From Neodothiora populina (lineage: Eukaryota), in the NCBI RefSeq assembly GCF_041146345.1, contig NW_027191405.1, positions 1 through 64,000 on the forward strand: a stretch of 64,000 nt of DNA, read 5' to 3'. The notes below the pieces were generated by a model. That model did no database searches. It saw only the letters and a list, made by a program, of their open reading frames with translations, and was not told where the DNA came from. The translations under genes were made by a program, and so were the position numbers. Below, piece by piece: positions 40,801 to 64,000 of the stretch (its first letter is position 1; each line of letters begins with the position of its first letter).

Positions 40801-43800
40801 CGTGCACTCATAATATTGCAAGCCTGGTCTATTTAAGTCTGTGACACCCTTGGATTCGAGGAGCGAGCGAAGATTCTTCGCACTAGGTTGAACGTTGTTT
40901 GAGGACGGGTTGGACGAGAAAGCGAGTCGGGACTGGATGTTCAGGCAGAGAGATCCAACTCGATTGTGGCGGACGATTTCCGCAGAAGATACCTTCATGC
41001 CATTCTCTCGGAGATATTTCGCAAATCTAATGGCGACGATAGAGTCGATGCCAAGATGAATGAAGGAACTGTTCTTTTTGATGTCCTGGATCGGTATGGC
41101 GGTAAACGAAGACACTAAGCGGCGGACTTCTTGTTCGAGAGAGGACCAGTTGGCCTCATCGAAGGTCGGAGTCGTTAACTGGATACCTTTCTGGGATGAC
41201 TCTGGTAGTCCGAGCAACTGGACGAGACTTGCGCCCCCAGTCAGAATCAATAAAGTCAGCATCTCGAGTTTTTCCAAAAGTATATCAGCAGTCTCTGTGC
41301 TACCGAAGCTTTCTGTAAAGCCTGCCCTTACTATGAGTTTATCCTCCGGCACATTGGCCTCAAATTCCACAGCCAACGGATAGTCGACAGCGATTGTGTT
41401 GCTGGCTTGCTTGAGCATAGGGACTGAGACTGCTTCTGGCTGGATCCTGGAATAAGAGAAGAGAGAATTATAAAGTGCTCTATCAGCTTTGGTCCATGCC
41501 TGGATGTCTCTTGGGGAGACATGCTGAAATTCCAGTGATACTGAGGAAGAGTTTTGAACAGCGGTCAGTAAGTCGTCGATTGTCGCCTGAGGATCTTGGA
41601 TGCTGATACGTTGAGGTACAGTGCTGATGCATGGGGCGAGGATTGTATCCGCCCCCTCCACAGGTACCGTCCGACCAGATAAGACGGTGCCAAATATCAC
41701 ATCATTTGTGTCAATGGTCTTCGCCATGACAATACCAAATGCAGCCTGGAGTAACGTAGCGAATGTAAATTTGCGTGAGGCCACGTCAGAGTCTAGCTCG
41801 GAGAGAGGCGTCTCAAACATTCTCTCTCGTGTAGAAAGTGTGATGGTAGAGCTTTGTTCTAATGGCCAGAGTGAGGCATCTTGCCAATTGCTGAGTAGCG
41901 ATGTCCAATGCTTTTTCGCACGTTTATGGTCTTGAGATGCGATGTGCTCAAGGAGGGGCACCATGCTCTGGTGCTTGTCAGGAATATTGCTTTCGTAAAA
42001 TGATTGCACGTCCCGTAGCATCATGTCCATTGAGTTTCCATCGTAGAGTGCGTGATGGATTGAAAGAATGAGGCACTTCCCTGCCCCACTGTCACGATCG
42101 CACACATTCAGGCGAAGTGGTGGGATTTCTGCTATCTGCTCGATGATAGCTTTGCCACTGTTCGACTCGACAGAAGTAATGTCTGTGGTAGAAAGAGGCT
42201 TGTCGATGTATTTCCATATCGAAGGCATTGCTTCTGTGCTCAGAACAAGTTGCAGGAAGCTATCTTTATGCGACGCAAAGCACGTTCTCAAGATTTCGTT
42301 CTCCCGAATAACGGTTGACCAGGCCGCGTGAAGTCTGTCGATATCGATGTCCTCACCCAAGTCGAACCTGACATGGTTGATGTAGGCAACGTCCTCGGCT
42401 GTTGGGTCCTGATGCATTGATTGTCCGATAATAACATCCTGTAGTGGGAAGCAAGGTCTGACTGCTGTCACATGACCATTTGATGCATCGTTGCTTTGCA
42501 GGTAATCGTTCGCAAGGACATTCATCTGTTCCCGAACTTTATCTAAGGTTGCAGAGTCAGCAGAAGCACCTTTCCTTTGTAGTCCGGCAAGTGCTTCGAG
42601 AGTCGGGTTCTTCATCACCAGGGAGACACTACAATCGTAGCCAGCGGTGCGCAATCTCGAGAAGACGGTGATTGCAGATAAACTGTCGATACCTAGCTCG
42701 AACACAGTCGAAGATGGTGAGACTGATTTGGATCCATCCGGTATCACGCTACGAATTATCTGAAGCACGGCTTCCTCGCCTTCATTCAGTTCTTTGCGAT
42801 TACTCTCGTTGTCCGGTTTGGCATTGGATCCTCCAGGCATAAGTTTAGCAATGGAGAATCCGGAAAAGATACTGGTCAGCAACTTGTTATCCGCTTTGCC
42901 CGATGTCGCAGCCAGAGGGATGTAGGATAGAGGTACGATAAGATCTGGGACCATGTAAACAGGCAATGACTTCTGACATTGACGGCGAAGTGTGTCGTTG
43001 ACCTCAAGAATGGCCTCGTCGAGAATGACCGGGAGATCTCCGCCTCCTCTGCGCCTCGAAGACCCAGACTCGGCAATGAATGCCACCAGTTGAGTTCTTG
43101 AAAGTTCGGGGTGTTTCAAGATCAATGCCGTAGTGTCGATGGGTGAGGATGCAGCCATACGTAAGCCCTCAGAAACCTCCCCGAGCTCGACTCGCTGTCC
43201 CCTAATTTTGACCTGATCGTCTTTGCGCCCCAGAAATTGAATGTGATCATCCGGCATGAGCCGAACAATATCGCCAGTACGATACATCCTCTGGCCGTGG
43301 AAATCATCAACAAACCCTTTAGCATCAGGGCGATTGAGATAGCCGTTGGCAACAAAACTACCAGTGAAGCAGAGCTCACCGGACAACCCTCTCAAGACAT
43401 AAGAATCCGTTCCGGGAGTAAGCACATGAGCTTGACAGTCGCCAAGGGGCTTTCCGATGTCCCTCATATCAGTGTCGGAGAAGACTCTTGCAGAATTACA
43501 GCCAACGGTTGCTTCAGTTGGACCGTACGCGTTGATGAGTGTAACGCGGTGATGAGATGCCCAAAGCTTCTTCGTCTTTGCTGACATTTTCTCACCTCCG
43601 ACTGAAAGGTAGACGAGATCTGGTGTGTCATCAGGTTCTAGTCCGGTCTGATCGAGCAAAGAAGGCACAAAGCTGGCATGAGAGATGTGTAGAGATGAGA
43701 GCGCAAGCGGAAGGTCGTCTAACAACATGGATCGAGGTGCAGTAACAGCACTGAGCCCATGTCGCCAAGCTAAGAACATTTCTCCAATGTGAACATCGAA

Positions 43801-46800
43801 TGCCCTGCTCGCCAGGCAAAGATATTTACCCTTGCCACCAAGTTCTACTGTAGCGGGGCAGGCGCCGCAGATGAACTCAGACTGACCTTCAACAAAAGAG
43901 CTGAGATTTCCCTGACTGACGAGAACACCTTTGGGCTTACCGGTGCTGCCCGATGTGTAGAGCAAGTAAGCGTTGTCGTCCGGCACGCCTTGTCGAGGAG
44001 GGTCTGTGGAAGGGAAACCCACGAGGGCCCTCTGGGTGATGTCATATTCAACGTCAATGGTTTCGCAACTCGCTGGAATATATGCCGGGTCGAAAAGGTC
44101 GGGATTTGTGAAGACTAAGGCAGCGTCACTATCCTCAAGCAAGAATCCTTTCCGCTCTATTGGAAGACTCTCCTCGATCGGCAGGTAAGTATTACCAGAC
44201 TTGAAGATTCCGGCAACGACGGCGTAAGAGATCAAGGTACGGCCTAGACACATTCCAATCATACGATTTGAGACGCTCTTTGCTAATATCATGTTCGCCA
44301 CGCGATTAGCCTCGTTGTTCAGCTGATGGAAGGTCCAAACATCAGTGCGAGTCTCTTCTAGCTCTATACTCGTTGCTATCTCGATGGCCTCCCACTCCGG
44401 ATTGGTGTGGGCCCAATGTTCGATCCACGAGGTTGGGTGTGCCTCAATTGGACACTTTGTGTCATGGTTGATAGCAGACACAGACACAATGTCTGAGGGA
44501 AAGAACTCCGACAGCGACGATATCTTGCAGTGGGTTTGGTCGATCATGGCATTGATTATAGCATCTAGGCCGCGTAAAAGAATGTTCTGCTGTTCCTCGG
44601 TAACTAGCTGGTCGGCAATCGAAAGTTCAACCAGAGGGTGGGAGTCTGAGTCTTGCCAGATGTTACACGCAATCGGATGCTCGACTACGATATCGTGGGC
44701 ATCACCTAGGCTCTGCCAAAGCTCTGAGGGGTCCTGCGGTGACGCATTCGTATTTGGATGGAAGGCGAACATCGCAGGATAAAGGTGCTTACTAGTGGGA
44801 CGGTTGAGCACACCTTTGATGGTTGACGGTCGAATGTTGCGGTGCTGCCAGGCAGACTTCACAAACTGGTCTTGACGCACTATAGTCTCGAGCACAGTGG
44901 GCTCGCGACCGAACAGGATAGGGACGACGTTCAACATGGGCCCTACAATGTTCTCTAACTTATCGTCAACAATACGCAGCGACATGACTTCTGCATATAA
45001 AGCTTGAGCGGTTTCGAGAAGCTCAGTAAGAAGTAGACCCCAAGCAGTACGTAGGATAGTGACGAACGAGGAACAGCCCATTTCTTGCGCAGCTGCTCGC
45101 AATTTCGAAAGGGTTACTGTTAGTCTCAGTACAGTCGTCCGGTGTGTCAATTGCTGGTCGTCGTTGGCCATCTGCTCGAGCGAGGTTTCGTCGTCAAGAT
45201 CTTCTAGTGACTTCTTCCAGAAGTTCACGGTCTCAGTCCTGTCAGCATCAAGAGTAGAGTCAACTGCCAGTGCGTCCCTCAACTGATGCCTCCTAGCAGA
45301 GCCAAGACCATTATACTCGGCCTTGACATCCGCTGCTATCATCTCGAGAGAAGGTCCATCGTAGATCGAGTGATGGATTGTCAACATCATCGTCCTCTCG
45401 CTATCTCTCCCAAAGATGTCAAGAGCCCAGAGGGGGTGCTTGAAAAGCGATTGATGATGTCTGGAAGCAATCTCCTTCATCCGAGCCCCCGTTACAAGTT
45501 TGACGTCAGAGTAGGCATCATGTTCCTTCCAATCCACGCTAGCTTTAGCATAAGCAATCTGAACCCAGGAAGAGCCACCGCTCGAGTCTGGACTTAAGAA
45601 TGCCTTCGGCAGGAAGCCAACGCGCAAGGACTCGTTACGGACAGCTACACTCTTCCACGCAGCTCTGAGCTCATGCAGATCGACTTCTGCGCTTAATGCG
45701 AACAGATGAGTACTCCAGTACGCACATGGCTCTTTTAGAGTTTCACTCAGGAGACTCTCTTGCAGTATAGTCGTTGGCATGACGTTGAAGTTGATGTCTG
45801 AGACATGTTGCTTCACCTGGGCATGAAGACGCTTGTTGAAAGACTGCAGAGCATGTGTCGCATTCCGCGATGTGACAGTTTCGGCATTTGCAAGGCGGAC
45901 AAGATCGGCAAGATTGCGGCACTTAAGTGCTTCTGCTATGGACAAAGAATAGCCAAGTGAGTTGATCTTCGGAACAAGGCGAATAGCCCTGATAGAGTCG
46001 ATTCCGAGAGCTGGAAGACTGCTCGTGGGTTTGATGCTCCTGACCGGTATGCCAGAAACCTGGGATGCTACCTCTACTATGCCTTTGTTGTCAGTAAGCC
46101 ATTGTAGGACCTCGCTGTCTTCGGCTCCACTATCTGAGCTGACGGTCTCCTCCCAGACCGCAACATCGACAGCGTGATATGCTCTTGTCAATGATGATCG
46201 ATCGACTTTCGCGGAGGCTGTCTGTGGGATTTTAGGAACGACGACGAATAAGCTAGGGACCATGTAGCCTGGAAGAACGTTTCGCGCATGTTCTGCGACT
46301 GCTCGAGCAACTTCAGCAGCGGCGTCGGAGGTCACAGGTTCGTTGCTTCTCGTCGCATCCCCAAGTGACGGGCATGCAAGGAATGCCACTACTGAAGTTC
46401 CGCTCTCGTCTTGTCTCTTGCAGTTCAGTACTTCGACCCGTTCGACTGAGGGATGAGCATCGCGAAGGAAGAATGTGATCTCCCCTAATTCAACTCGGAT
46501 GCCACCTAGCTTGACAAGATCATCGTTACGTCCGATAAAGTCCAAGGTACCATCAGACAATTGCCTTACAATGTCTCCTGTCAAGTATACACGTTCTTCA
46601 AGCTTTTGGTTCCATACGAACTTGTTTTTGGTAATTTCGGGGTTCTTCCAGTACCCAGGGCTGACCTGAATCCCGGACAATGCAAGCTCGCCAACGCCAT
46701 TTTGTGGAACTAGATGTCCATCATCAAGGACGTAAGTACCTACCGATGGCAATGGTACACCGACGTTGGAGCTTGAATGATCACTGCCTCCGTCACCGAA

Positions 46801-49800
46801 TTGTGTGAGCGTGGAAACAACGGTTACCTCTGCGGGTCCATAGGTATTGAATGCTCTTCGCCCCACGCCATAGTCATTGGCTACTGACTCGGTGAGTTTT
46901 TCGCCGATCATTGTCACTACCTCAAGCGTTTCAAGGTTGCTTGAGGGTACTGTGGCAGCGAACGCAGGAGTGAGATGCGCATGAGTAGCGTGAGTTGCGT
47001 TTGCAAGCTCTGCAAACGTTTGCAGCATTATCTCCCTTGTACTGGAGATAACAACTCCACCAAGAGTCCAAGTATAGAACAAGTCTTGCACGAATACATC
47101 GAACGTATACTGGGAGAACTGCATGCATCGGACCGTTCCACCGGTCACATCTGAGGGTATCACTGCAGCCAATGCTTTCATGGCTGTAGATGCTGAGCGA
47201 TGCGTGATAGGGACACCCTTTGGCAGTCCCGTAGTTCCACTAGTGAAGATCAGATAAGCCAAGTCGTCAGGACCAGCTATGGATCGTACGATCGGTGGTG
47301 TCAAAGGCGTTTCTGCGCGAAGGGCAGATTGACACATGCTTATATCGAGCATCTTGATGCCGGATGGCAGCATGTCGCCATCAATTTTTACGGTCGATCC
47401 AGTTGTGATCAACAACTTGCTGCCTGTCTGCTTCATCACAGTTTGCTGTCTTGCAGGTGGTGCATATGGATCGATAGGGCACCATGCAGATCCAGCTTTG
47501 AGTATACCAAGTACGGCAATATACAACTCCGGACACTTCTCCATACAGAGAAGGATTGGCTCTCCTGGTGCAGGCCCAAAGGTTGCAAGCAAGTGCTCGG
47601 CCAGGCGATCAGCCAGAGTATTCAATTTGCCGTACGACCATTCAATGCTGGCTTCTTCGCCATCATCAAGCGACTGCTTGAATATTAGTGCAGTGTTATC
47701 AGGGCTCTGAATTGCAAAATTCTCAAAGGCCGAATGCAAGAGATCTTGTTGACGTGATAGGGTTATCGATGCATCCACGGGCGTCTGGGAAAGCAACTCG
47801 CTCCTCACTGCAAAGCGAGTCTCTGAATATGGTTCGTCCGGTCTATCGCAGATATAATTGATGTAATCATCAAGCTGACGAAGCATAGTTTCAGCAGCTC
47901 CACTATCCATGTGGGACTGCTTCCATGTTGCACGAAGTCGTAGAAATCCAGATTCGGTAGGCCAGACTTCTACCATGATAGCAAAGTCATTCTCCATTGA
48001 AGGATACTCAACGCGAGACCAGATCTGGTTTCTTTCTGCATTTTCATCGAATGACTGGAAAGCTAGGAGAGTGTCATACGGAAGTCGGCCGTCGATCGTG
48101 GTCAATCCCCCCAACGGGATCTGAAGATGAGGTAGCGCGTTCACATTGGCTGATGTCAATGCCGCGACAACCTCTCTGTTGGTAGCTCCACGCTTGTGAT
48201 CCTCCGATAGTCTGACTGGTATAGTGACAAATGTAGGGGCCACACAGCTCGCAGTCGCTTGTACCAACCTATCTGATACAACACTGCCAAACGAAATATC
48301 GGAGGTAGGCCCTGTGTATGAAAGAAGCACGGTCGCCCACGAAGCTTGTAGGAGCGAGAGGGGCGAAGCTGTAATGGCCCTCGAAGCCGCCTGCAATTTC
48401 TGAAGCGTGATCTTGCCGACGAATTCAGTACAGCCCGCACGCCTTGCTGCTGTACCGACGCGAGTGGCTGTGAGAGTAGGGAATGGCGTCGGAGAGAAAT
48501 CTGAAAACACATCGTTCCAATACTTTGCTGTGGTCTCTGTCGCGTATGCAAAGTGGCGTTGGACCGCGGTTCCAATATCAGTGCGCTGCGCATGTTCCCT
48601 TGAAAGAACACAGTCTGCCACGTCTTGCATGAGAAGCTCCAATGAACCACCATCGAAGATACCGTGAAACATGCTGAGTACGTAAGCGGTGCGGGTCGAA
48701 GAAGAGATGACAGACAGTGTCAATGGAGGTCGTTGAAGGGTGATCGAGGCTTCTGCATCGGCACAAGCCTGGCTCACAATTGTATCCCAGTCTCTGTCGT
48801 TGGCGTCCAGGTATTCCAGTATCTTCGACGAAGTCGCTTCGCTTGACCTCTTGATTACACATTGAGCAAAGGGAGAGATATGATCATCGATGGCCACAAA
48901 GGCAGTACGCAAGACCATGGGTCGGCTCAAGGTATCTTCCCAGGCCTGCAGAACAGCACTGGTATCCTGGCCAGTTCTTTGGTAGTAGACGGAGTGATTA
49001 ATGTAGTGTTTGTTCTCTCCTGCAGCCAGACTTCTGTGGTAACTAGCTAACATACCGGACTGGGTGGCGGTTGTTGGTAGAACAACCTCGATATCCTCTA
49101 TGCGTAGATCAAGCTGTTCGCTAACATACTTCGCATGTTTCTCACTGTAGACGGATAGAAGCTGCTGTACTTTGCTCTCATCAACATCACTATTGATGCT
49201 ACTCATGCCGCATAGGTCGGCTAGGGACCGTGGCGTCCGGGATTTTAGGATGTGAGCGACTGTCAGGTCATGCACATCCTGATTTCGGAGCTCTTGCAGT
49301 AAGCGAACAGCCCGAAGACTGTCGAGTCCCATGGAGAAGAGATCGGTATCAGCTGTGACCGTCGTCACGTCCGTGTTGGCGACCTTGGCGATGCACTGCA
49401 TGATCTTTTCGAGCATGCTACCAGGGACGACATCTGAGCCTTGGCTAGATGAAGTGACTTCATGCTTTCGCAGGCTGTGAGGTACTATTGTTGAAGTCCA
49501 CTCTTCGTTGATGGTACGGTCCAATGCCTTCCTGTCGGTTTTGCCGGACCTGGATCGCGGCATCTCGCGGATTATATGATATCGTGACGGATGCATGTAT
49601 TTTGGAAGAAGTCGATCTGCCGCGGCCTGACAATCTGCTATAAGCAATTCGGATTCCACCTCAATATTCAGCACTAAGCAGGCAATAACTTGTTCGCTGC
49701 CATGTCCTTGAGGGTTGTGCTGGTGGACCACAGCCACAACATCAGAGACACCTGAAACAGTGCTTAAGGCGCTCTCAATCTGACCTAACTCGACTCTTCT

Positions 49801-51904
49801 ACCACTCAATTTGACCTGGTCAGTGTTCAGACGGCCTAAGAAATCAACGACAAGCGTTCCTGCCCTATCTCTGACGACTCTTGCCTTGTCACCAGTTCTG
49901 TACAGCCTGCCATACTGGGGACTGGTCACGAATGCAGCCGCCGTTTGATCAGGTCTGTTCACATAACCCATGCTGACTTGAGGTCCACCAATGGCCAATT
50001 CTCCTGCAAAGCCAATGGGCACCGGAGTTGGGATTTTATTCGCCGGATCGATGACAAGAATCGAAGCTGTCTCTAGGGGATATCCAATGATCGAACCCCT
50101 TTGATCCACGGAGAACTCTGGCACTAGTGTGCAGTTTATTGATGCCTCTGTAGGGCCATAAGCGTTGAGGAGGCTGCTAAGCTTATCAGGTCTAGAGGAT
50201 GGGCTAGGTGGGCGGCTTCTTAGAGGCGAGTCCGATGCGAAGTTCTGGATCACTGTAGTATTGAGCTTCTCGCCCATGGTCCAAAGATTACGCAAAGTTG
50301 GAACTTTCTCCGGTCGTAAAGAAGTGGCCATGCTGGGCGTTGCCATCATAATCGTCGTAGATAGTTTAGTGACGATGAGCTCAGGGTCTGTGAGCAACAA
50401 CTGCCGATGTGCTGAACAAAGGGTTCCGCCACAGGTCCACGTTACATATATCTCCATGATGGATGGATCGAAAGTAGGCGCTGCGAACTGGAACCATCTA
50501 AATCCCCTTTTGGACATAGCTAGACTGATGTATTTTGCATGTGATGCTATGGAGCAGGCTGCAGAGATGTGCGAGATCTGCACGCCTTTGGGTCTGCCAG
50601 TCGACCCACTTGTGTACATTACATATGCGAGGTCGGTCTCAGCGACCTTCGGAAGCTCGAAGGCAGGCGTGTTGGAGCTTAGATCGAAGGATTGGATGAA
50701 TCTCGCGACATCAAAGGACGTAGGGAGTTCATCAAAGTCCGCATACCACGCATCCCATGGGTGAGCAAGCAGTTTGGGGCCATCAACAAGCACCAGTTGA
50801 GCACCAACTTCCTCTACGATTGTCTGAAGGTGATCAGAAGGGGCATCCACTGGTAATGGGCAGAACGCAAATCCAGCCTTCAGAGTGGCCAGCCACGAGA
50901 CGTAAAATGCTGGAGACTGCGACATATACGCAGGAACAATGATCTGATCATTGTTATTTCGAAGAGTAACACACTCACGAAGTTGCAGTGCAAGCGCAGT
51001 AGTCAAATGGTCAAGTTCCGAGTACGTGTATGTTACATTGGATCCGATCGTTCCTGATTCCGCTGAGGACAAGAAATCCAGGGCAGGTCGATCTGGATAC
51101 TGGCTGGCTGATCGCTGAAATCCAGCATGTAACAGCGCATTTTGTTCGGATGAATCTGCCAGATCTTGTGCGATCCTTGGTGGCCTGCTCAATGGAGGAT
51201 GGTTCAAAACGGACAAATTGTCATTACTGAGCTCTCGCACATTTGCGCAAGCTCGGTTCGCCGTTTTCGAGATTTGGTATATCAATACATTGAACAAAAC
51301 CTCCGCGGCTTCAGACTCCAGTAACCTCTGCTGGTATAGCAAGACCAACTTCAATTGCGTGGCATGGTATTGCACCGAAAATGGCTAAAGCTGGGTCAGC
51401 AAGGCCATTGCCGCGATGGATTTGACGATAACATACCGATTGAAGTAGCAGGGAAGTAGCAGAGGTGTCAAAGTTATCTGGATCAGCATGAAGTTCGATT
51501 CCAAAATCCGCGAGTTCCTGATCTATGCTTATCTCGCTGAGGTCGATGGTACACGGCAGCGATTCGCCACCAATCTGCGCAGCAGCCTGGCCCTCAGAAA
51601 TAGCAGCTTGTATCTTGTACACCTTGTCGGTATGATGTGGGCCCAATCGCTGAGCGAACTGATAAGATACTTCGGATTCACTGGTCAGTGTGCCAATGAA
51701 GCGAGCGAAGCCCTGCAATACTCCATCTTTGCTTCTTGGATAACTCTCGTTAGTAGAAAACTGATACTCGAGTCTTTCGCGAGACACATCCCTAGCCTGG
51801 TCTGTTGAGCTGGTGGCGTCGAGGCTCGTGACTCTACATTCAGCACGAAGGGTATCTAAGTCAGGGAAGGCAGTACATGAAGAAAAGCCACTGAACGACG
51901 ACAT
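37846..51904 (-). CDS. sidC: Ferrichrome-type siderophore NRPS (SidC/NPS1 lineage), A-T-C-A-T-C-A-T-C-T-C-T-C; intron 51436-51385
   Basis: Three A domains (YTSGSTGRPKG, FTSGTTGLPKG, YTSGSTGKPKG), five T motifs (GLDSL, GIDSI, GIDSL, GIDSI, GVDSI) and five C motifs (FHGIFDG, HHSIYDG, HHALYDG, HHSLYDG, HHAAYDA). A GTATGT..TAG intron links the upstream exon (MSSFSGF...) in frame. Confidence 0.93.
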
Positions 51905-52317: not shown

Positions 52318-52326
52318 TTATCAGAT
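52318..52326 (-). promoter_or_regulatory. SreA-type iron-repression GATA box (ATCTGATAA) in the NRPS/ligase divergent promoter
   Basis: TTATCAGAT is an exact reverse complement of the ATCWGATAA consensus. Confidence 0.7.
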
Positions 52327-52926
52327 CCGTCGGTCTTGGTGCGCCACGTGGTGTGTGGCTTGCGCTAGTGATAATGCTACCGCTTGAGCCAACTTGTCGG
52401 CTTTGGCGGGAAGTTTACGACGCTCCCTCCACCCTTGATACCGAACAGGAGGAGGCTATTCATGTCGCATTATTAGTTGCACACTTGCGATACAACCTTG
52501 TCGGTAATGAGATCAGCTATAGCCAACGGGACATCGCGGTGCTTGTGATCTGACACTGCCGAGGCAAGGTGGGAAAAAAACATTCATGCGGCTATGAGCG
52601 GACTTACTACTTCCGACCACTTTGGATCGATGGTACGTTTTTTATCTGTTGATCTAAGCGATGCATCGACTCCGTTTGTGAACCTTGTAGCGCCTCGTAT
52701 AGACCCTCACCATTCGGCAACTCTAGGGCGACGTTGAAGGATCTATAAACCACTATCCCTGGAGGGGCACCATGCACTCACTCGTTATCACACGGAACCG
52801 ATTCCATGCTCACTCCGAACTCGGCATGGTCTGCTCTCTCATTGTCGATACTGTTTGACGTGATCTGCATTTTCTAAAGCAAGTGCCCAGTGACTCTACT
52901 CTACCTAGCCAACCACGTCTACAGCT

Positions 52927-54714
52927 ATGGAGAGTATATGCCAATCGCAGGGCGAGAGTGTCTCGGAGGTGCAACTCTCATTGTTCCATGGCCCCTCCGA
53001 CCCTCCATTGACGACTTTGACACTTGCGACTTTCTTGGATCTGCAATGCAAGTTCTATGGCGACAAGGAGTGTATGATCATACCCTGGACGGATACAAGA
53101 TGGACCTATAATGACATACAGGGGCAGAGCTGTCTTCTGGCCCGCCACCTGTATTCTGCAGGTATCCGTCCAGGAGATCGCGCCGCGATATTGGCAGGAA
53201 ACTGTGCCGAATATATGGCGGTATTCTTTGCCTGCATGCGCCTGGGAGCCGTCCTAGTAATTCTAAACAACACATACACTGCGGCGGAGGCTACATACGG
53301 CCTGCAGTACTCGGGATCAAAGATACTATTCGCAACTCCACAAATCGGCCGACTTGACAATAGCGAAATGCTCGAAGGGTTCAGCACGAACCACAAAGAT
53401 CTGCCATCGCTCCAGCAGATCGTACTACTACGTGGAAGTCATGGTAACATGACCACATATGAGGAAGTAATCAGCACTGCCCAGCAGCTTTCTGCAAAGC
53501 CTGTCGAAGACATCCAGCGTGATCTCAATCCATATGACGTTTGCAATCTGCAGTTCACTAGTGGAAGCACTGGAAATCCAAAAGCAGCCATGCTCACACA
53601 TCACGGTCTGCTTAACAACTCTCGCTTTATTGGCGACCGTATGGCATTGGGCCCCGAGGATGTCCTTTGTTGCCCTCCGCCTCTTTTCCACTGCTTTGGG
53701 CTGGTGCTAGGGTTCTTGGCAATTATGACACACGGCGGCAAGATTGTATATCCATCAGATATCTTTGATGCGTCTGCCGTGCTTCAAGCAATCTCGGACG
53801 AGAAGTGTACTGCGTTGCATGGTGTTCCTGCTATGTTTGACACAATCTTTAGCACGCCTCTCCCGGCGAATTTTGATTGCAGTAGACTGAGAACAGGTAT
53901 CATTGCAGGAGCACCAGTGCCTCGCTATCTTATGGAGCTGTTGGTGAATGAGTTTGGCATGACCGAATTCACGAGTAGCTACGGTAGGTTACTCGTGTTC
54001 ATGCATCGAGTGTCTGCGAATACTGATTTAATTGATAATACAGGTCTCACGGAAGCCTCGCCTACCTGCTTCAACGCGTTCACTTATGACACCATCGATC
54101 GAAGACTGACAACAGTCGGAACATTACTACCACACGCGCATGGAAAGATTGTTGACAGGAACGGACGTATCGTACCTGTAGGTACAAAGGGTGAACTCTG
54201 TATCGCTGGTTACCAGTTGCAAAAGGGATACTTCAAGAACCCGGAGAAGACCGCTGAGTGTATGATCCGGGACGACCAAGGCGTCTTGTGGCTGCACACA
54301 GGTGATGAGGCTGTCTTCGACGAGCAAGGCTACTGCAGCATCACTGGCCGTTTCAAGGACATCATCATCCGCGGCGGAGAGAACATATACCCTCTTGAGA
54401 TCGAAGAGAGGCTGGTGAAACATGACTCAATCGAAAGGGCCGTTGTCGTTGGACTGTCACACTCGAAATACGGCGAAGTTGTGGCAGCATTCCTACAACG
54501 ACCGTCAGATCGAGCTCGACCGAGTGATGACTCTGTGCGGGCATGGACCAGAGAAACACTCGGGAGACACAAAGCCCCTTCACATATCTTCTGGCTCGGG
54601 GAAGACGGCGTTCCTGAGGACATTCCCATCACAGGAAGTGGGAAGATCAAGAAGTTTGAGTTCAGAAAGCTTGGCGAGTCGCTCTTGCTCAGTAAGGCAA
54701 GAGCGAAGTTGTAG
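52927..54714 (+). CDS. sidI: Acyl-CoA ligase, SidI (mevalonyl-CoA ligase)-like; in-frame 60-nt intron 53984-54043; C-terminal PTS1 (AKL)
   Basis: LSLFHGPSDPPL...PWTDTRWTY, LQFTSGSTGNPKAAMLTH, PPPLFHCFG, SSYG|LTEASP, WLHTGD, GRFKDIIIRGGENIYP and TGSGKIKK. Its position in a siderophore cluster supports the call. Confidence 0.82.
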   Translation: MESICQSQGESVSEVQLSLFHGPSDPPLTTLTLATFLDLQCKFYGDKECMIIPWTDTRWTYNDIQGQSCLLARHLYSAGIRPGDRAAILAGNCAEYMAVFFACMRLGAVLVILNNTYTAAEATYGLQYSGSKILFATPQIGRLDNSEMLEGFSTNHKDLPSLQQIVLLRGSHGNMTTYEEVISTAQQLSAKPVEDIQRDLNPYDVCNLQFTSGSTGNPKAAMLTHHGLLNNSRFIGDRMALGPEDVLCCPPPLFHCFGLVLGFLAIMTHGGKIVYPSDIFDASAVLQAISDEKCTALHGVPAMFDTIFSTPLPANFDCSRLRTGIIAGAPVPRYLMELLVNEFGMTEFTSSYGRLLVFMHRVSANTDLIDNTGLTEASPTCFNAFTYDTIDRRLTTVGTLLPHAHGKIVDRNGRIVPVGTKGELCIAGYQLQKGYFKNPEKTAECMIRDDQGVLWLHTGDEAVFDEQGYCSITGRFKDIIIRGGENIYPLEIEERLVKHDSIERAVVVGLSHSKYGEVVAAFLQRPSDRARPSDDSVRAWTRETLGRHKAPSHIFWLGEDGVPEDIPITGSGKIKKFEFRKLGESLLLSKARAKL

Positions 54715-55169: not shown

Positions 55170-56724
55170 CTACAACATTGATTGATTGCTTACTTGCGAT
55201 CCTTGCTGATTCTGCTCCTTGTTGAGAAGACGATCCGAGGATGCAATCACTCTATGTGCCTGTTCGGCTACATGCAAGAACTCCTCGTCACGAGACTGTG
55301 ATTGAATGTCAGTTCGAGGTGCATCAAAATGAATTCTTCGTTTCGGGTAGTGAACGTACCATGTGATCCCCAAAGGAGATCAGGGACCAAATACCGCATC
55401 CGTTGTGCAAGACGCCCTTCTTGATATTGACTTGATAGTCACGATCCACACTGACGGCGCCTTGCTCCATCAAAGCAGAAAGGGAAGATAGCAAAGACTC
55501 GCCCTGCTTGCGGTAACCCGTAGCTACAACAACCTTGTCGAATGATCGCTCAGACTTCCTGACGGCGCCAGTCCGTGGAGATTTCAACAGCAAACGGACA
55601 TGAGGTTGAGTAGAGCTTGGTAGTATCTCTGCGCCAATGACTTTTGCCAAGGGCTCGATACCAAATCTCCACTTACTGGGATCATTTTCACGGATCTTCT
55701 GAGCATAGTCCATGTCATATAGGCGCTCGAGAAGCTCAAGCGATACAGGACTGGCGTTATACCCCTCCTTCGCGAATATAATCTTCTTGCGAAGCTCAGG
55801 AGGGAAGAACGCAAAATCCGAGGGAGGAACATCAACCAACGTACGAGAGCTGGAACCATGTTAGTGACATATTCCAGGATCACTACCGTCGTTAATGACT
55901 TACAATGCTGTCTGGTCGACTGGTCGGAGTGAAGAATCTTCGATGAAGAAGGTTGATCGGTGGCCACCATAATGCAATTGCAACTCTTCAAAGATCTCGG
56001 CGCCCTCTTGAGAAGCTCCAACTACGGCTACGTCTGGTAGGCGGCCGTTATGTTGAGCAAAAAGCTCATTAGATGAGTCAGAGTGAACGACATATCTGGA
56101 CAGCTCCGGAGTCGCGAGAGCTTTGGGGATATGAGGCGCTAGACCTGTTGCGACCACAAGTCTCTTGGAGTTCAGAGTGATCAAATCACCCCGCGCAGTA
56201 TCTCTGTAGAGAACCGAGAAGCTTTCCACCTGCGAATCTGCCGACTTCCTGATGGGATCAATCCTCAGAACCTCGGCGCCATAGTTCACCCAGCCTAATC
56301 TCTCTATGTGTTCCGTTACCCATACCAGATAGTGACTCATGAGCAGCTTTGAGGGATGTAGACTGGACGCATTAGTGAAGGCCACAAGCTGGCCTGTCGT
56401 CTGCAAGTAGTTGACAAAGGTGAACTTTGATCGCGGGTTTTGTGTGGTGATCAGATCCCGAAGGAAAGGTGTCGCTACCTTGTTGTCTGGTAGAGACTTT
56501 GCCGGTGCCCATGTGAAGGCATCTTGACGCTCGAGAAACTTGACACTCCTCCCCGAATTGCGATCTGCCAGAGCTGCGGCTACCGCAAGAGAAGACAAAC
56601 CAAAACCAACACCCAGAAGGTCTATAGATTGTTCGGGATCAGCAGATCTTCCTCTGGGCCTTGCAGCCTGTCGGCTCGATGTCTCCATACTGCGCCTTTC
56701 AGAAGTTGTCACTGTGGCTGCCAT
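55170..56724 (-). CDS. Divergent L-ornithine N5-monooxygenase (SidA/PvdA)-fold flavoprotein; introns 55903-55850 and 55359-55296
   Basis: DLLGVGFG, FLERQ, NPRSKFTFVNYL, VVATG, VAVVG, VVVATGY and DRDYQV follow SidA order. Both introns are canonical and splice in frame to an intact ORF ending QSML. Confidence 0.85.
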
Positions 56725-57297: not shown

Positions 57298-57492
57298 TTA
57301 TCAATCTGATAATTAGAATCAGCGGGTCATTTCTGCGAAGGTTCAGCTAGGCGAAACATGGTGGGGCTCGCGTTGGCTCTAGCGCGGCGCTTCGACGCGA
57401 GCTCTTCCATATTAGACGTTACATCCATGGTTCTGCCCACACACTTGACCCGTCAATGTGCAGGATGAAAAACTTATCAGTGGATCAGATAA
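57298..57492. promoter_or_regulatory. Paired GATA/SreA boxes upstream of the SidA-like gene
   Basis: TTATCA-ATCTGATAA at 57298-57312 and TTATCAG-TGG-ATCAGATAA at 57474-57492; two exact ATCWGATAA matches. Confidence 0.72.
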
Positions 57493-57918: not shown

Positions 57919-60900
57919 CTAATCTCCCAGCACTTGGTGCAATGCATTTGTGCGATAAGTCTCGCTCTTGGACAGCAACTCCTTGTGCGTGCCCCTTGCA
58001 GTGCAGTTGCCATCTTCAATCACGAAGATGCAATCTGCTTTCTCGATCGTGTGCAATCTGTGTGCAATTGCAATCACTGTGATTCCCTTCCTGACATTCT
58101 CGAGTGCATCTTGCACCATCTTCTCACTTTCCGAATCAAGGGCACTTGTACTCTCATCTAATAGTAGCAAGCGTGGCTTCCTGAGCAAGGCTCTGGCAAT
58201 CGAAAGGCGTTGCTTCTGACCACCAGAGAATTGTGAACCATTAGGACCACATCGAGTGTCATAGCCATCTGGGAGTGCAGCAATAGTGTCATGTATGTTG
58301 GCCATACGACATGCGTTCTCGATTTCGGCATCAGTGACATCGTGGCCAGGGCGAGCGCCGAGAGACAGGTTGAAGCGAAGAGTTCCCTCGAACATCACAC
58401 TCTCCTGGGGAACCAGGGAGATAGAGTCTCGGAAGCTCGAGTCGCAGAACTTGCCAACGTCTCGGTTGTCAAGCTCGACCCTGCCGGAAGTTGGTCGATA
58501 GAATCTTTCCAACAGGGCGATGATCGTCGATTTGCCTGCTCCACTAGGACCCACAAGAGCGCAGAATTGACCGGGCTTGATGTCCATCGTCAATCCCTTG
58601 AGAACTTGCATATTAGGCCGGGCTGGATATGAGAAGCGCACATCGCGGAAAGTGATCCTAGCACCTGTGTCAGGGGCAGCTTTGGCGATTGCCTTCTCGC
58701 CCATAGAAGACTCCAAGTCCTTCTCGTCGAAGCCTGAGCTCGACGAGCTGTCTAGACGCATGTCAGGGGGCATGTTAGACCGCTCCGTCTTGCCGATCGC
58801 TAGTAGATCCAGAATTCTAGCAGCAGAGACCCTAGACTTTGAGAAGTCCGGGGCCAAAGCAAAGAGCTGCCCGCAAGTTTGAGCGCTGAACAGCAGCGCG
58901 GGCAAAACGATGAAAAATTGAGTCTGACTGTATCTGCCTTCGATGATGTTCTGAGAACCCCACCAGTATGCGAGAGCATATACCAGGTTGCTAACACTGT
59001 AAGCAGAGGCGAGCCAGACGTTGCTCCATAGGATAGCCTTTCGCGTCTCGTCGTATGGCGGCTTGAGTTCGCGATGGTAAACCGCAACTGCCTCATTCTC
59101 CAGAGAGAAAATCGAGATAGTTCTGATAGAATTGACTGCTTCAACAGCTACCCCTGTAGCTTTTGCAAAGGCTTTCTGATGCTTCGCGTGGAATTTCGCA
59201 AACACCCGTAGACGCATCATACCGGCACCGATCAAAACGGGCAGTGTAGCAAGTAACACAACAGCTATCCTCCACGCGATGATGTGGGACAAAATGATAC
59301 CAGCAATAGTGTTGACGATGATAGAGAACAAGGTCCCCAGAATTGTGCCGGTCAAACCAGCCAAGGCATTGGCATCACTTGTGATGAAAGATAGCAGCGT
59401 AGCAGGCGTTCTACCCTCGGATTCGTGCCATTGTAGGTCTTGACCAAGTAAAGTGCGAAGGGATTTGACACGGATCTTATACAGAGTGTTCTCCGATACA
59501 AGCCCGAAGAGGGATCCGCTGGACACGTTGGCGAAGAACTCGATAGCGGCTAGGATGAAGAACATCAAACCAAAGAATGCTCCGTCATGTCGAATAGATT
59601 CGGCGGTATTACAGGTCGAGAAGCTGCTGATAGTGTGACCGAAAATTACAGCCTCGCCAGAATACGAACCACCGACAATGGCGCTAGACGTGAGAGCAAT
59701 GAGAAGATAGACAGCCTGTGATCTCGTCTGAGACACAATTCCTGTGATGGTTGACCACACGCCACGCTTTGAACCTGCTGATGAGTCTGCCGGTGCAGGA
59801 GCTGACAGGGCCTTTTCGTCCTTGTCATTGGGATCCATTTCCTGAGCAAGGCTTCGGGATTCAATCTTCTCGGAAGGCTGGTTAAATTCTTCCTCAACAA
59901 CCGACATTGCTTCGTCGACTTGGGTGATTTCCGTGTCGCTGATGGACTCGCCAGATGCTGGATTACTAACGGTCTGAAGTCTAACCATACTCGCGTAGAC
60001 ACCGTCTTGAGCAGTCAATTCTTGGTGAGAGCCTTGTTCAATGATCTTGCCACTGCGCATGACGATGATGTTGTCGGCGTTCTTGATCGTAGATAAACGA
60101 TGAACAATAGAAATAGTAGTGCGTCCAAGAGTCGCTCGCTCGAGTGCCCCTTGGATAAGACGTTCACTGCGAGAGTCAAGCGATGATGTTGCTTCGTCGA
60201 GGAGAAGAATTCTTGGTTCACGGACCATGGCACGTGCTAGAGCGATTCTTTGCTTTTGGCCACCACTGAGCTGACTTCCAGCAGCACCTACGGAGGTTGC
60301 TAGACCATGTTCCAGACGACTGATGAACTCAAGGGCGTCGGCAAGCCTAGCAGCTTCTTTGACTTGATCAACAAGGCTTTTGATCACATCATCAGCGGAA
60401 TTGAGAGCGTCGTGAATGTTCTGACCATCCTGGACGTTCTTGACGAGTCGAGCGAGAGAACCATCCATGATCTTCAAGACCTCATCCTCTGAAGCCTTGC
60501 GAGAGTTAATCAGGCCGTGGGCAATGTTCTCGAGAATTGATCGATCCAGCAGCGAGGGGTCCTGCTGCACGGTGCCAATGCAACCTCTAAGCTGTCTGAC
60601 ATTGAGTTCGCGCACGTCAACTCCATCGAGTCGGATCTGTCCTTCTGCTGGGTCATACAATCTGCCAGTGAGAGCAGCAACTGTAGACTTGCCACTTCCA
60701 GATTGTCCGACAATGGCAGTATGTTTGTTTGCTGGTATGCTCAAGGAGATACCTTTGAGGACAGTGGTATCTGGACGGCCGGGGTAGGCGAATGAAACAT
60801 TCTCGAAGTCGATTTGACCTCCAACAGACTCGATGGGCTTGCCCACTGTAGTGGAGGTACCATCAATCAACGAGTTGCGGTTGATAGCGCCATTCAATTT

Positions 60901-61991
60901 CTCGGCGGCAGACGCGGCAGAGCCGAAGATCTGCAAGAAGGGGGCTACTTGACTGAGAATAAAGGAAGCTTATCTTGTTGTCAGTATAGTTCCACAATGA
61001 AAAGAAACGGACGATACATACCATCGATAAGCAGGAAGATGACTGTGTAGACTGCACCGACCTTTGAAGCACCAGTGCCACTAGCCACACCAGCAGCAAT
61101 GTCCCTACTGCCCTGCCAATATGCTAGGGCGTTGGTAGAATACGCAATGAAGTACAACAGACCGAGCTGAACCGCAGCGGTGATCGCCTTCTTGAAGGCT
61201 TCTTTCCTGGCAACGTCGAGATATTCGGCAAACTTGGCCTCTAGTCGGGCACCTGCGCCGAATGCTTGAACAAGTTGGATCTTCGAAAGACTCTCAGATG
61301 CAATGGACGTGGCAAGTGCAATGTTATCTGAAACGCGTCCACTGTACTTTTTGATGAAGTGAGAACCAATGAATGTCATGAGAAAGTACGCGGGAACCAG
61401 AGAAACAAGCATGCCGGCCAGCTTAGCATCCTTGATGAATGCCACCACGTAGGACGCGACGAAGTAAGACACACTTCCGATACAGATACCGACCTTCTCT
61501 GAGGTACCGGTCTGGATAGCCTCGAGATCCGTGGACAAGCGAGACGAGACATCGCCGGCTGGCAAAGTGTCGAAGAATGAGAGCTCCTGGCGTAAGAGAC
61601 TTCGAAGGTATTTCTCACGAAGACGTCGGACAAGTCGCTCTCCAAGAAGACTCCAGCAACAACTGTGGATGTAGATGAAGCACCAATTGGCGATGGTGAC
61701 ATAGATGACTTGCAGAACTTTTGTCCGGACCTGGTGCTCTAATGTCGAGTGATCGGCTACAGTATCGTTGCAGCCGGTGCTGTTCAAGTTGTTGATAAGT
61801 TCACCAAAGAGGATACCGAGCAAAGGAAAGGGTATTCCGGTTGCAATGCCACCGATGACACCTCCACAGAGCAATATCACGTCGACGAAAGTGTATCCAG
61901 GACTCAACAGTAGCCGGAAATACGCAGTTGCCTTTCTCCAGGACTCGTGCAGTCTGCCCACCTTAGGGGCATCTTCTTGCTTCTCTGCCAT
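57919..61991 (-). CDS. ABCB (MDR/P-glycoprotein type) full-size ABC exporter; intron 61021-60969
   Basis: TMD-NBD-TMD-NBD layout with Walker A GQSGSGKS and GPSGAGKS, signatures LSGGQKQR and FSGGQKQR, and Walker B LLLDEATS and LLLDESTS. Confidence 0.95.
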
Positions 61992-62340
61992 GTTCAAGAA
62001 GTACGGTGAATCAAAGGCCGCAAACAGTGGCCTCAATCGCACTTCGTGGACTTGAGCAGATCAATCCTCCTCGACATACCGTTGTCTAAGAAGCAGAACC
62101 TGAAGTTCCAAGAAAAGGATAGCGGCATCGGAGCGAATTGCAAAATCGGCCCATTCTGTTATGACCATCATTCGCCCGCAGAGTTTGATGCCAGCCTGTA
62201 CCCAATGATGGCCGATCTCTTCGCTAGACGTTGCATTGCAGCGGTGTTTGACGAGAAACACCTGCGGGTTCTAAACAATCCGCCGATGCGGTGTGGTGCT
62301 ATACTTTAGCGTATTGCATCGGCCAAGACGGCAAACGCGA

Positions 62341-62349: not shown

Positions 62350-62903
62350 CGTCTGATTATTTTTCATCAGTCAAAGCGCCAACACATTGCGCTAAGCGAT
62401 GTCGTTATGTAATCCACGTGCCCCACTTAGGCAGAGCACAGTACAACGAAGATCTTCAACAATAAAGGCAGCAGCAATGTGCAGCTAATCGCAAAGACCA
62501 CCGCGGTCCCTGTCGATACAGTATCTGCTATACCTATTAGGCAAAGTATTGTAGAGCGGAGATCCTCGATGGCATCATCGCAACAATACTCTTGCCGAGC
62601 TTACGTCAAGCAGTGAACCGACAAGCAACGTGATGTTCGGAACATTAGCGGTAGCAGACAGCTCTGACATTTGTGTGACTCGGTATTGCACATTGATAGT
62701 CCATCAAACATCGTATCGGTAACCGGGTGTATCATGCCGCATCATCATTGCACCGACTGGAGAGCGCTGCCGGTAGGAAGTATTGGGCTACGTCGATCAA
62801 TCACATGAAATGAAAGGTAATTCATAGGTAAAGCTTTCAATCTTGTGATTCATTTTTATTCATTGTGATTTTGCTTTGGTCTTTCCTCCCATCACATTTC
62901 AAG

Positions 62904-64000
62904 ATGTTCAGCCCGACGGTGCCATCGACGTTGTGCCTTCCGCATCCATATCTCACAAGTTATCGTGTCGAGCCGTCCACAAAAGCGAAAGCCACCGACC
63001 AATACTCGTGGCTGAGGATATCTCACTCTGCGGCAGACACGCCCTCGCAAGGGAGGCCGTTATCTGCACCCTTACATGGTGACATAGAGTTTACGCTTCC
63101 ACAAGATCCAGAAGACAACGACAGCGCGCCACCACTGGCAAACAACACCTTTTGGGCGCGCATTCGAAGGAGTCCGGCAGCGGTCATCAGATGGGACAGG
63201 GAAAATGTGAATCTCGGCCATTTGTGGTTGCTTATATATGCCACTTTCACTCTGAGGCCAGATAATGAATATTATCGTCTTGTCATGCAGGATGCAAAGA
63301 GCGAGGATCTTGCAGAAGAATTAAAGACTGTAGGCCTCGCGATCCAGCATCCTGTGGCGGCAGACTCCTCAGATGAGGGGAGCAAAGAGCTAGTAGTCAT
63401 ACGTAGCACATTCTGGCAAGGAGCCGGGTCTCCGTTCGGCGCAAGGCCAGCGTGGGCACCAGATACAACAACTGTGAAGACCACGAAGAGACCGCTCGCC
63501 GCATATCCCGTGCTACCGACAGACTACACGTTGAGCACTAGATTTCCAAAGGCAAACATCCATGCCTTTCACCCTCGTAGACCCCAAAAGCCTACGCCTG
63601 GAGAAGTCATATACTCTAGATACATCCCGCACCTTGGCGAGAACTTCAACGTGATTGCGTTGGACTACCATAATCCGGAGCATCTCAATCTCTTCCACAC
63701 GTGGCAGAACGATCCTCGTGTATCAGCAGGATGGAACGAGACAGGCACGCTGGAGGAACACAGACATTATCTTCGCACACTGCACGAAGACCCGCACACC
63801 TTGACAGTGCTCGCGAGATTCGACGACAACTTCTTTGCCTACTACGAGATCTATTGGGCCAAGGTTAGTGTTTTCCAGGAGACATTCAATACCGAAGTAA
63901 TTTGCAGCTGATCAGAATCATAGGAGGATCATTTCGGAGTCTACTGCGACGCAGGCGACTTCGATCGCGGCCGCCACTGTCTAGTCGGAAACGACCGCTT
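62904..64000 (+). CDS. sidF: N5-hydroxyornithine acyltransferase (SidF/IucB/AlcB GNAT family), truncated by window end; intron 63864-63923
   Basis: LPHPYLT, NNTFWARIRRSP, FWQGAGSPFG, HPRRPQKPTPGEVIYSRYIP, FHTWQNDPRV and YYEIYWAK|EDH...DRGRHCLVG motifs. SidF versus SidL is judged from memory of the N-terminal motifs. Confidence 0.8.

Follow-up and report, generated by a model that had tools for sequence, protein, structure and literature searches.

A SidA-like paralogue in a siderophore gene cluster of Neodothiora populina has kept the FAD-binding motifs and replaced the ornithine- and NADPH-binding signatures of SidA

Introduction

SidA catalyzes the step by which fungi are committed to the synthesis of hydroxamate siderophores. 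The enzyme is both a determinant of virulence and a target for drugs, and its active site is one of the best studied among the N-hydroxylating flavoenzymes. We report here the analysis of a SidA-like gene of the fungus Neodothiora populina that is located in a siderophore gene cluster, within a stretch of 64,000 nucleotides referred to below as the window (assembly GCF_041146345.1, contig NW_027191405.1, positions 1 to 64,000 of the forward strand). The gene is intact and its product has kept the motifs for binding of flavin adenine dinucleotide (FAD), but the residues that bind ornithine and NADPH in Aspergillus fumigatus SidA have been replaced for the most part, and a fully canonical SidA is encoded elsewhere in the same genome. 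These features are shared by a clade of fungal proteins, and they suggest that the gene has probably acquired a new function dedicated to the cluster.

It is already known that some fungi have two sidA orthologues. In Cladophialophora carrionii, sidA1 is located beside sidC, and sidA2 (CLCR_02414) belongs to a cluster that comprises sidD, sidF, sidH, sidI, and an ABC transporter gene; the accessible part of that study treats sidA2 as an ordinary ornithine monooxygenase orthologue and reports expression measurements for sidA1 only (PMC10382037). A search of the full-text literature, which did not extend to subscription-only papers, led to no description of a SidA clade lacking the substrate and NADPH signatures.

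Results

An intact three-exon gene encodes a member of the SidA family

The SidA-like gene (window 55170-56724, minus strand) comprises three exons and encodes a product of 478 amino acids without any internal stop codon (Table 1). The spliced product is identical, letter for letter, to annotated protein P0152 ("hypothetical protein AAFC00_005051 [Neodothiora populina]"), and both introns have GT..AG borders. An annotated isoform of 466 residues starts at Met13. The full-length protein matched Pfam family PF13434 (Lys_Orn_oxgnase) over profile positions 2 to 338 of 339 with a score of 212.1 bits (cut-off, 21.3 bits), compared with 351 to 360 bits for canonical proteins, and exon 1 by itself matched the same family with an E value of 9e-50. 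The best relative of solved structure was A. fumigatus SidA (PDB 4b63; HMMER E value, 6.6e-55). Scanning NCBIfam provided only a match far below the threshold, to histamine N-monooxygenase (86 bits for a cut-off of 700 bits), the ESM Atlas search returned generic ornithine-monooxygenase clusters only, and the search for longer homologues of exon 1 retrieved a single fused protein, which was unrelated. One RNA run contained a lone contig of 265 nucleotides that was unspliced across intron 1 and probably originated from DNA.

The FAD motifs are retained and the ornithine and NADPH signatures are replaced

The motifs of the SidA-like protein were compared to those of A. fumigatus SidA based on HMMER alignments to 4b63 and, for the C-terminal block located beyond the end of the HMMER alignment, on MAFFT alignments. 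The two proteins are about 30% identical and have in common the Pfam family, the fold, the FAD-binding GxGxxG motif, the FLE motif, D108, ATGY, and a ...DL.T..NPRS.FTF.NYL block, in addition to the siderophore-cluster context and the SreA-type boxes of their genes. The FAD motif GFGPAS of SidA is GFGLSS in the window protein, which keeps GxGxxG, and the acidic residue of FLE (position 65) and VVVATGY are also present. WHSGM is replaced by WAPAK, and MQISFIKD is replaced by VATPFLRD, corresponding to the M101V, Q102A, and K107R substitutions. The NADPH motif GSGQS is GASQE (G255S and S257E), which departs from the GxGQS(A) pattern, and MRDS is IEDS (R279E), leaving neither Arg nor Lys at position 279 and Glu at both 257 and 279. 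SPFVNE is TAFSRT (N293R), and TNYS is YNAS, in which N323 is kept and Y324 is replaced by Ala. Finally, the QGCNExTHGLSDSLLS block of SidA, which contains S469, is replaced: QGCNERTHGLSDSLLS in SidA corresponds to LISFGDHMSRDEEFL in the window protein, with Leu at position 469.

The roles of these residues in SidA are documented in the accessible text of two reviews, according to which the K107A substitution abolishes hydroxylation, the N293A, S469A, and N323A substitutions weaken ornithine binding, and S257 positions NADP+ via its pyrophosphate (PMC7347517, PMC10696468). The first of these sources also indicates that R279 binds the 2'-phosphate of NADPH and that the R279E mutant prefers NADH (PMC7347517). 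The Glu at 279 of the window protein therefore fits the idea of a preference for NADH that had been put forward in an earlier note made from the sequence of the window. As judged from the alignments, the window protein keeps the requirements for FAD binding and a cationic residue beside the invariant Asp at the carboxylate anchor, and it lacks the remaining ornithine anchors and the NADPH-specific contacts.

An AlphaFold2 model based on an input alignment of 56 sequences had a mean predicted local distance difference test (pLDDT) score of 88.4 and a predicted template modeling (pTM) score of 0.86. Confidence within the folded part was lowest for residues 71-80, 271-280, 301-310, and 431-440, blocks in which four of the replaced pocket motifs are found. 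The top Foldseek matches of the model were SidA chains, with template modeling (TM) scores of 0.76 to 0.83; SidA, PvdA, and KtzI together gave TM scores of 0.74 to 0.86.

The same genome encodes a canonical SidA

A word-index search with the full-length window protein gave 18 matches and did not reveal another N. populina protein, in line with the limited sensitivity of this search. A second sidA gene was looked for by querying a protein collection with a canonical SidA from a dothideomycete. Inspection of the best 120 of 2377 matches revealed another protein of N. populina, P0247 (AAFC00_001464, 516 amino acids), which is canonical at all of the 16 inspected sites. M101, Q102, K107, GxGQSA, N293, N323, Y324, D465, and S469 are in place, and position 279 is occupied by Lys, as in Histoplasma SID1. 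P0247 belongs to the same family as the window protein and displays 35% identity with it over 413 columns, but the two genes are located on separate contigs, of 2.80 Mb for P0247 and 2.02 Mb for the window gene. Unlike the window protein, P0247 ends with -LRI and has no [SA]M[LFI] tail. A canonical copy and a divergent copy were found together in four more species, namely, Lecanosticta acicola, Rhizodiscina lignyota, Pseudovirgaria hyperparasitica, and Lophium mytilinum.

The SidA-like protein belongs to a divergent clade with its own conserved residues

The HMMER search with exon 1 led to 1156 proteins at an E value of ≤0.001, the best 150 of which were listed. A residue table of 111 rows was built from the 98 listed matches of 380 to 600 amino acids and 13 additional proteins. 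Nineteen of these 111 rows lacked the SidA signature and fell into three groups: group A (nine rows), comprising proteins from Neodothiora, Zalaria, Aureobasidium, Lecanosticta, Elsinoe (two proteins), Sphaceloma, and two others; group B (five rows), from Venturia, Tothia, Rhizodiscina, Pseudovirgaria, and Microthyrium; and group C (five rows), from Phaeomoniella, Exophiala, Lophium, and two others. In a tree of 66 rows that included canonical fungal and bacterial members (IQ-TREE quick search, LG+G4), groups A, B, and C formed one clade with a Shimodaira-Hasegawa-like approximate likelihood ratio test (SH-aLRT) support of 97, and group A had a support of 99. P0247 was placed opposite this clade, among canonical fungal SidA proteins and beside that of Aureobasidium.

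Conservation was evaluated at 65 reference columns that are at least 90% conserved across 38 canonical-type members. The columns of the fold and of the FAD core are retained in group A, D35, G40, A49, D90, P97, S99, N118, P124, Y132, W135, G236, Y322, D378, and Y412 being present in all nine proteins, but those of the pocket are lost: the canonical residue was found in none of the nine proteins at K107, G255, N293, and Y324 and in a single one at Q102 and S257. Conservation extends to the replacing residues: all nine proteins have Arg at 107 and either Gln or Arg at 293, and eight of them have Glu at 257. Group A contains 47 invariant columns, among which is a clade-specific PPE.R motif. The 92 other representatives provided the background, with K107 in 84, G255 in 89, S257 in 87, N293 in 84, Y324 in 83, Q102 in 91, Arg or Lys at 279 in 73, and S469 in 73 of them. 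The group A signature is defined by F[LMI]RDL.T, Gx[SDNT]QE[AG]AE, Gln or Arg at 293, PPE[LV]R, and W.LGSL. The window protein has the full signature except for WSLISF in place of W.LGSL.

Environmental relatives share the signature, the gene neighborhood, and purifying selection

Metagenomes were scanned with the group A alignment as the query; Arg at 107 was fixed by the search pattern, and the other motifs were independent of it. Seven loci (L001 to L007) were found, all of which (7/7) had the group A signature. Combining proteins and loci, Glu was the most common residue at position 279 (four of the nine group A proteins and five of the seven loci), and neither Arg nor Lys was found at this position (0/16). 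The flanks were annotated for L001, L003, L004, and L005, the three remaining loci (L002, L006, and L007) being records of 1.4 to 2.6 kb, and siderophore-related neighbors were present in all four. In L003, the SidA-like gene was accompanied by genes for an ABC transporter, an MFS transporter, a DUF1749 protein, a convergent SidI-like ligase, an AMP-binding open reading frame (ORF), a PF13523 GNAT, and a nonribosomal peptide synthetase (NRPS) with a SidD N-terminal domain. L004 contained the SidA-like gene, a convergent SidI-like ligase gene, and an AMP-binding ORF; the neighbor of the SidA-like gene was a GNAT gene in L001 and a DUF1749 gene in L005. The convergent (tail-to-tail) arrangement of the SidA-like and SidI-like genes was thus found in three independent loci, i.e., the window, L003 (9893-13990), and L004 (842-3937).

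Two further features of these neighborhoods were observed. The DUF1749 gene is located immediately upstream of the SidA-like gene (L003, 7807-8814; L005, 1019-2029); we take SidJ, a siderophore esterase of A. fumigatus, to be a member of the DUF1749 family. A conserved AMP-binding ORF of approximately 545 amino acids is located downstream of the SidI-like gene (L003, 14858-17020; L004, 5252-7415); that of L003 is distinct from the SidD-type NRPS, which begins at 19875.

The ratio of nonsynonymous to synonymous substitution rates (dN/dS) was determined by the Nei-Gojobori method (NG86) for the five closely related loci L003 to L007, which form an Aureobasidium-like sister subclade. The values ranged from 0.04 to 0.34 for exon 1 (10 pairs), the maximum originating from a pair with a dS of 0.04, and from 0.13 to 0.41 for exon 2 (6 pairs). 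Saturation or unreliable estimates affected the 11 exon 1 pairs that involved L001 or L002, dS being undefined for 10 of them and equal to 1.98 for the last one.

An ATCWGATAA box was present approximately 300 to 350 bp upstream of the start of the SidA-like gene in five of the six loci that contained the 5' end; the box was not found in L002, for which only 270 nucleotides of upstream sequence were available. The position of intron 1 is shared by the window gene and by L001, L003, L004, L006, and L007, whereas an intron is missing there in L002. The intron 1 sequences of L004 (1637-1693) and L007 (557-613) preserve the reading frame and include a stop codon, and tblastn reads through them.

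The C-terminal tripeptides resemble peroxisomal targeting signals

Seven of the nine group A proteins end with -SML, -AML, -AMF, -SMF, or -SVL, and the two exceptions look truncated. The tail of the window protein is encoded at 55170-55181, and its counterpart in L003 is located at 11412-11420. The four environmental genes that include the C terminus (L002, L003, L004, and L007) encode -AML in three cases and -AMI in one case. A [SAC][KRHM][LMFI] end is present in only 7 of 120 canonical SidA proteins, all of which end with -AML, and P0247 has no match. The -SML and -AML tripeptides are possible weak type 1 peroxisomal targeting signals (PTS1). The SidI-like proteins of the window, L003, and L004 and the GNAT of L003 end with -AKL. 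This tripeptide is listed as a functional PTS1 in the accessible part of a study showing that SidI, SidH, and SidF are peroxisomal (PMC3709128). These tails suggest that the divergent paralogue may reside in peroxisomes along with its partners from the cluster.

The gene is embedded in a siderophore cluster and is preceded by SreA boxes

In the window, the SidA-like gene lies within a siderophore cluster that also comprises NRPS, SidI-like, SidF-like, and ABC transporter genes (Table 1). The SidI-like ligase gene is convergent with the SidA-like gene, from which it is separated by a gap of 455 bp. Among the ORFs of the window that were scanned, none corresponded to an enoyl-CoA hydratase. The extended SreA consensus ATCWGATAA was searched in the 64-kb window. 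The two exact boxes upstream of the SidA-like gene that had been reported in the earlier note were found at 580 and 760 bp from the ATG, and each of them, within 1.2 kb of the gene, has an inverted TGATAA motif at a distance of 3 to 4 nucleotides. The total number of boxes in the window, four for approximately 1.37 expected, was not significant, since 6 of 100 shuffles reached this number.

Other genes of the window were observed farther from the SidA-like gene. An MFS transporter gene (32241-33716, minus strand) and a PHO4-family phosphate transporter gene (35302-36816, plus strand) are located just past the 3' end of the NRPS ORF. Approximately 14 kb from the latter, an ORF at 23536-24186 (minus strand) matched PF05141 (DIT1_PvcA; pyoverdine/dityrosine biosynthesis, isocyanide-synthase type) with an E value of 3.9e-39. 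GMC oxidoreductase and dehydrogenase ORFs are close by, and this region may represent a small biosynthetic cluster of its own.

Table 1. Features of the SidA-like gene and of the surrounding siderophore cluster in the N. populina window
Feature	Position	Strand	Description
Exon 1	56724..55904	-	Met1 through codon 274 (first two bases); FAD GxGxxG (GFGLSS), VATPFLRD block, altered NAD(P)H motif GASQEG; ends with IEDSSLRPVDQTAF
Intron 1	55903..55850	-	54 nt; GTAAGT...CAG; CTAAC branch-like site
Exon 2	55849..55360	-	SRTLVD (N293>R), clade-invariant PPELR, YNAS (Y324>A), ATGY, end of PF13434 match
Intron 2	55359..55296	-	64 nt; GTACGT...CAG; splicing yields annotated P0152
Exon 3	55295..55170	-	Stop included; C-terminal helix (SRDEEFLHVAEQAHRV...), -SML terminus
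NRPS ORF	37846..51384	-	4512 aa; 3 AMP-binding, 5 condensation, 5 PP-binding stretches; ferrichrome-synthetase-like domain count
SidI-like acyl-CoA ligase ORF	52909..54714	+	AMP-binding and AMP-binding_C; -AKL terminus
ABC transporter	57919..62060	-	Split over two ORF pieces, with two ABC_membrane and two ABC_tran matches; next to the SidA-like promoter, on its upstream side
Siderophore transacylase-type GNAT	62832..63911	+	PF13523 Acetyltransf_8, SidF/SidL-like; ORF piece may extend further
Paired GATA site 1	57298..57312	+	TTATCA then ATCTGATAA (box at 57304); 580 bp upstream of ATG
Paired GATA site 2	57474..57492	+	TTATCA, 4 nt, ATCAGATAA (box at 57484); 760 bp upstream of ATG
Third ATCWGATAA box	52318..52326	-	Divergent promoter between the NRPS and SidI-like genes

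Discussion

The gene is intact, as the earlier note had claimed, and every one of the motif changes that it had listed was reproduced in the alignment to the solved SidA structure. The in silico checks that it had proposed also gave results in line with its reading: modeling led to a confident SidA-like fold, a second and canonical sidA exists on a different contig of the same species, the window gene falls in a supported clade separate from canonical SidA, the members with readable flanks are located in SidI/SidF/NRPS/ABC clusters, and dN/dS is well below 1 among close members of the sister subclade. We infer that the window gene does not encode the working ornithine hydroxylase. Based on the sequence comparisons, the gene is probably a functional, neofunctionalized SidA paralogue that is dedicated to the cluster and differs from a standard NADPH-dependent l-ornithine hydroxylase.

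In the mechanism that we propose, the SidA-like protein would be produced under iron starvation together with the rest of the cluster and would be directed to peroxisomes by its [SA]-M-[LFI] tail, as would the SidI-like and SidF-like enzymes by their -AKL tails. It would bind FAD and, through Arg89 and Asp90, a carboxylate-bearing amine that is derived from ornithine or related to it. The reductant would be devoid of a 2'-phosphate, i.e., NADH, as suggested by the Glu at 279, unless no reductant is used at all. Its step would then differ from the usual NADPH-dependent N5-hydroxylation of free l-ornithine, a reaction that the canonical SidA would supply. Two versions of this role can be envisaged, and flavin chemistry of altered specificity appears likelier than a noncatalytic binding or scaffolding role because most members of the clade keep the FAD motifs. 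Such chemistry would involve a reductant site of the NADH type or a relaxed one and a different amine that has kept its carboxylate. Substrate switching has a precedent in the diamine N-hydroxylases (SsDesB, DfoA, and putrescine N-hydroxylase), which have the same fold, were also Foldseek matches, and lack the K107, N293, and S469 anchors. According to the accessible text of a review, these enzymes, among them SsDesB, which is devoid of the three residues, do not hydroxylate ornithine (PMC10696468). These enzymes are, however, bacterial and far more distant (E values of 1e-17 to 1e-20), and the window protein differs from them in keeping a cationic Arg at 107.

Several observations weigh against the proposed neofunctionalization. 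The K107R and N-to-Q changes are conservative, so that amino acid hydroxylase activity may persist. N323 is retained in the window protein, although in only two of the nine group A proteins overall. Single changes occur in otherwise canonical members, since 4 of the 92 background representatives have K107R, 3 have G255S, and 1 has Asp at 257; it is only the combination of changes, not any single change, that is specific to the clade. The evidence for a peroxisomal location consists of tripeptides. The dN/dS values were obtained for the sister subclade and not for the N. populina lineage, and synonymous sites are saturated in L001, the nearest relative for which DNA is available (54% identity). 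Moreover, the clade evolves faster, N. populina and Aureobasidium sharing 41% identity for the divergent protein and 67% for canonical SidA, and the two Elsinoe proteins of group A share just 47% identity. In the subclade formed by Elsinoe ampelina (P0007), Sphaceloma murrayae (P0009), and Elsinoe fawcettii (P0014), all three proteins have Asp or Asn instead of the second glycine in the GxGxxG motif for FAD, and both ATGY and the acidic residue after strand 2 are lost in two of the three. A first alternative explanation is that the protein has remained an N-hydroxylase of l-ornithine (or l-lysine), i.e., a cluster-dedicated and perhaps peroxisomal isozyme with rearranged binding and a relaxed or NADH-shifted use of the coenzyme, which would supply N5-hydroxyornithine directly to a SidF-like transacylase. 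Carboxylate binding might be preserved with Arg at 107 and with Gln or Arg at 293, and K107R and G255S occur in otherwise canonical members, as mentioned above. A retained hydroxylase would also agree with the cluster context, since the cluster requires N5-hydroxyornithine and sidA is present in such clusters in many fungi, with the intact FAD motifs of the window protein, and with the observation that SidA R279E still works with NADH, as indicated in the accessible text of a review (PMC7347517). Databases and one paper label such genes as ornithine monooxygenases, all named members of the divergent clade being designated l-ornithine N(5)-monooxygenase [NAD(P)H] in UniRef. In addition, Knufia petricola and several related black fungi have no canonical sidA and yet secrete an NPS1-dependent siderophore, for which the authors propose "an alternative enzyme" in the accessible part of their report (PMC13274355). 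The accessible part of a report on the deletion of sidA in Aureobasidium melanogenum specifies neither which paralogue was deleted nor whether hydroxyornithine was lost (PMC8313269). We nevertheless consider that a retained hydroxylase is unlikely. From bacteria to fungi, the hydroxylases keep Q102, K107, G255, S257, N293, N323/Y324, and S469 in 73 to 91 of the 92 representatives, whereas the clade has replaced them together; S257E introduces a negative charge at the position where SidA contacts the pyrophosphate of NADP+; and the genome already encodes a canonical SidA.

A second alternative, which is a subset of the neofunctionalization that we favor, is that the protein is a pseudoenzyme, i.e., a noncatalytic binder with the SidA fold. 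It could keep ornithine or its hydroxylated form bound for use by SidF or the NRPS, act as a scaffold for peroxisomal enzymes, or form a heterooligomer with the canonical SidA. The fact that G255, S257, R279, Q102, and Y324, all of which contact NADPH, were lost together is in agreement with this role, as is strong purifying selection despite the absence of the catalytic signature. The Elsinoe and Sphaceloma proteins, which have lost the FAD glycine and kept R89, D90, P97, S99, N118, and PPELR, keep this explanation alive, but their losses may result either from a nonredox role that does not involve FAD or from relaxed constraint in that subclade. Maintenance of GxGxxG, the acidic residue of FLE, ATGY, and Q256 in the window protein and in most of the clade (six to eight of nine proteins) would be needless for a pure scaffold, and Glu, the most common residue at 279, is the classic residue of NADH-type enzymes. 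We consider a pseudoenzyme unlikely. The faster evolution of the clade, the absence of many family-invariant residues, and the highly divergent and in part truncated copies of Elsinoe could also be accounted for by a decaying duplicate on its way to a pseudogene, the frame of which would merely still be open. This is very unlikely, since the frame of 478 codons is intact with two canonical introns, the derived residues are conserved across orders, dN/dS is well below 1 in close relatives, synteny and the upstream SreA boxes are conserved, and the fold is predicted with confidence. Functional divergence of the paralogue remains the reading that we favor.

The distribution of the clade may extend beyond the Dothideomycetes. 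The chaetothyrialean Exophiala viscosa contributes a protein (P0029) to group C, and the sidA2 cluster of C. carrionii, as described in the accessible part of the study cited above, has the same layout as those of the window and L003. By analogy of cluster layout rather than sequence, C. carrionii sidA2 may belong to the divergent clade, and the clade of the window gene may correspond to the sidA2 type of the literature. A broader and still doubtful proposal is that the divergent clade, in Dothideomycetes and probably in Chaetothyriales, gave up ornithine N-hydroxylation and became a peroxisomal component of extracellular-siderophore synthesis, acting either as a flavoenzyme that applies a new chemistry to an intermediate derived from ornithine or as a noncatalytic partner passing substrate on to SidF and SidI. 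If this were true, the textbook pathway of fungal hydroxamate synthesis would miss a step. Aureobasidium, which offers both genome editing and siderophore analytics, is a suitable host for addressing the role of the clade. The existence of the clade suggests either that pathways for extracellular siderophores include an unrecognized activity or that the pocket of SidA can be rebuilt with its function kept, and in practice it makes the counting of sidA copies by homology alone risky.

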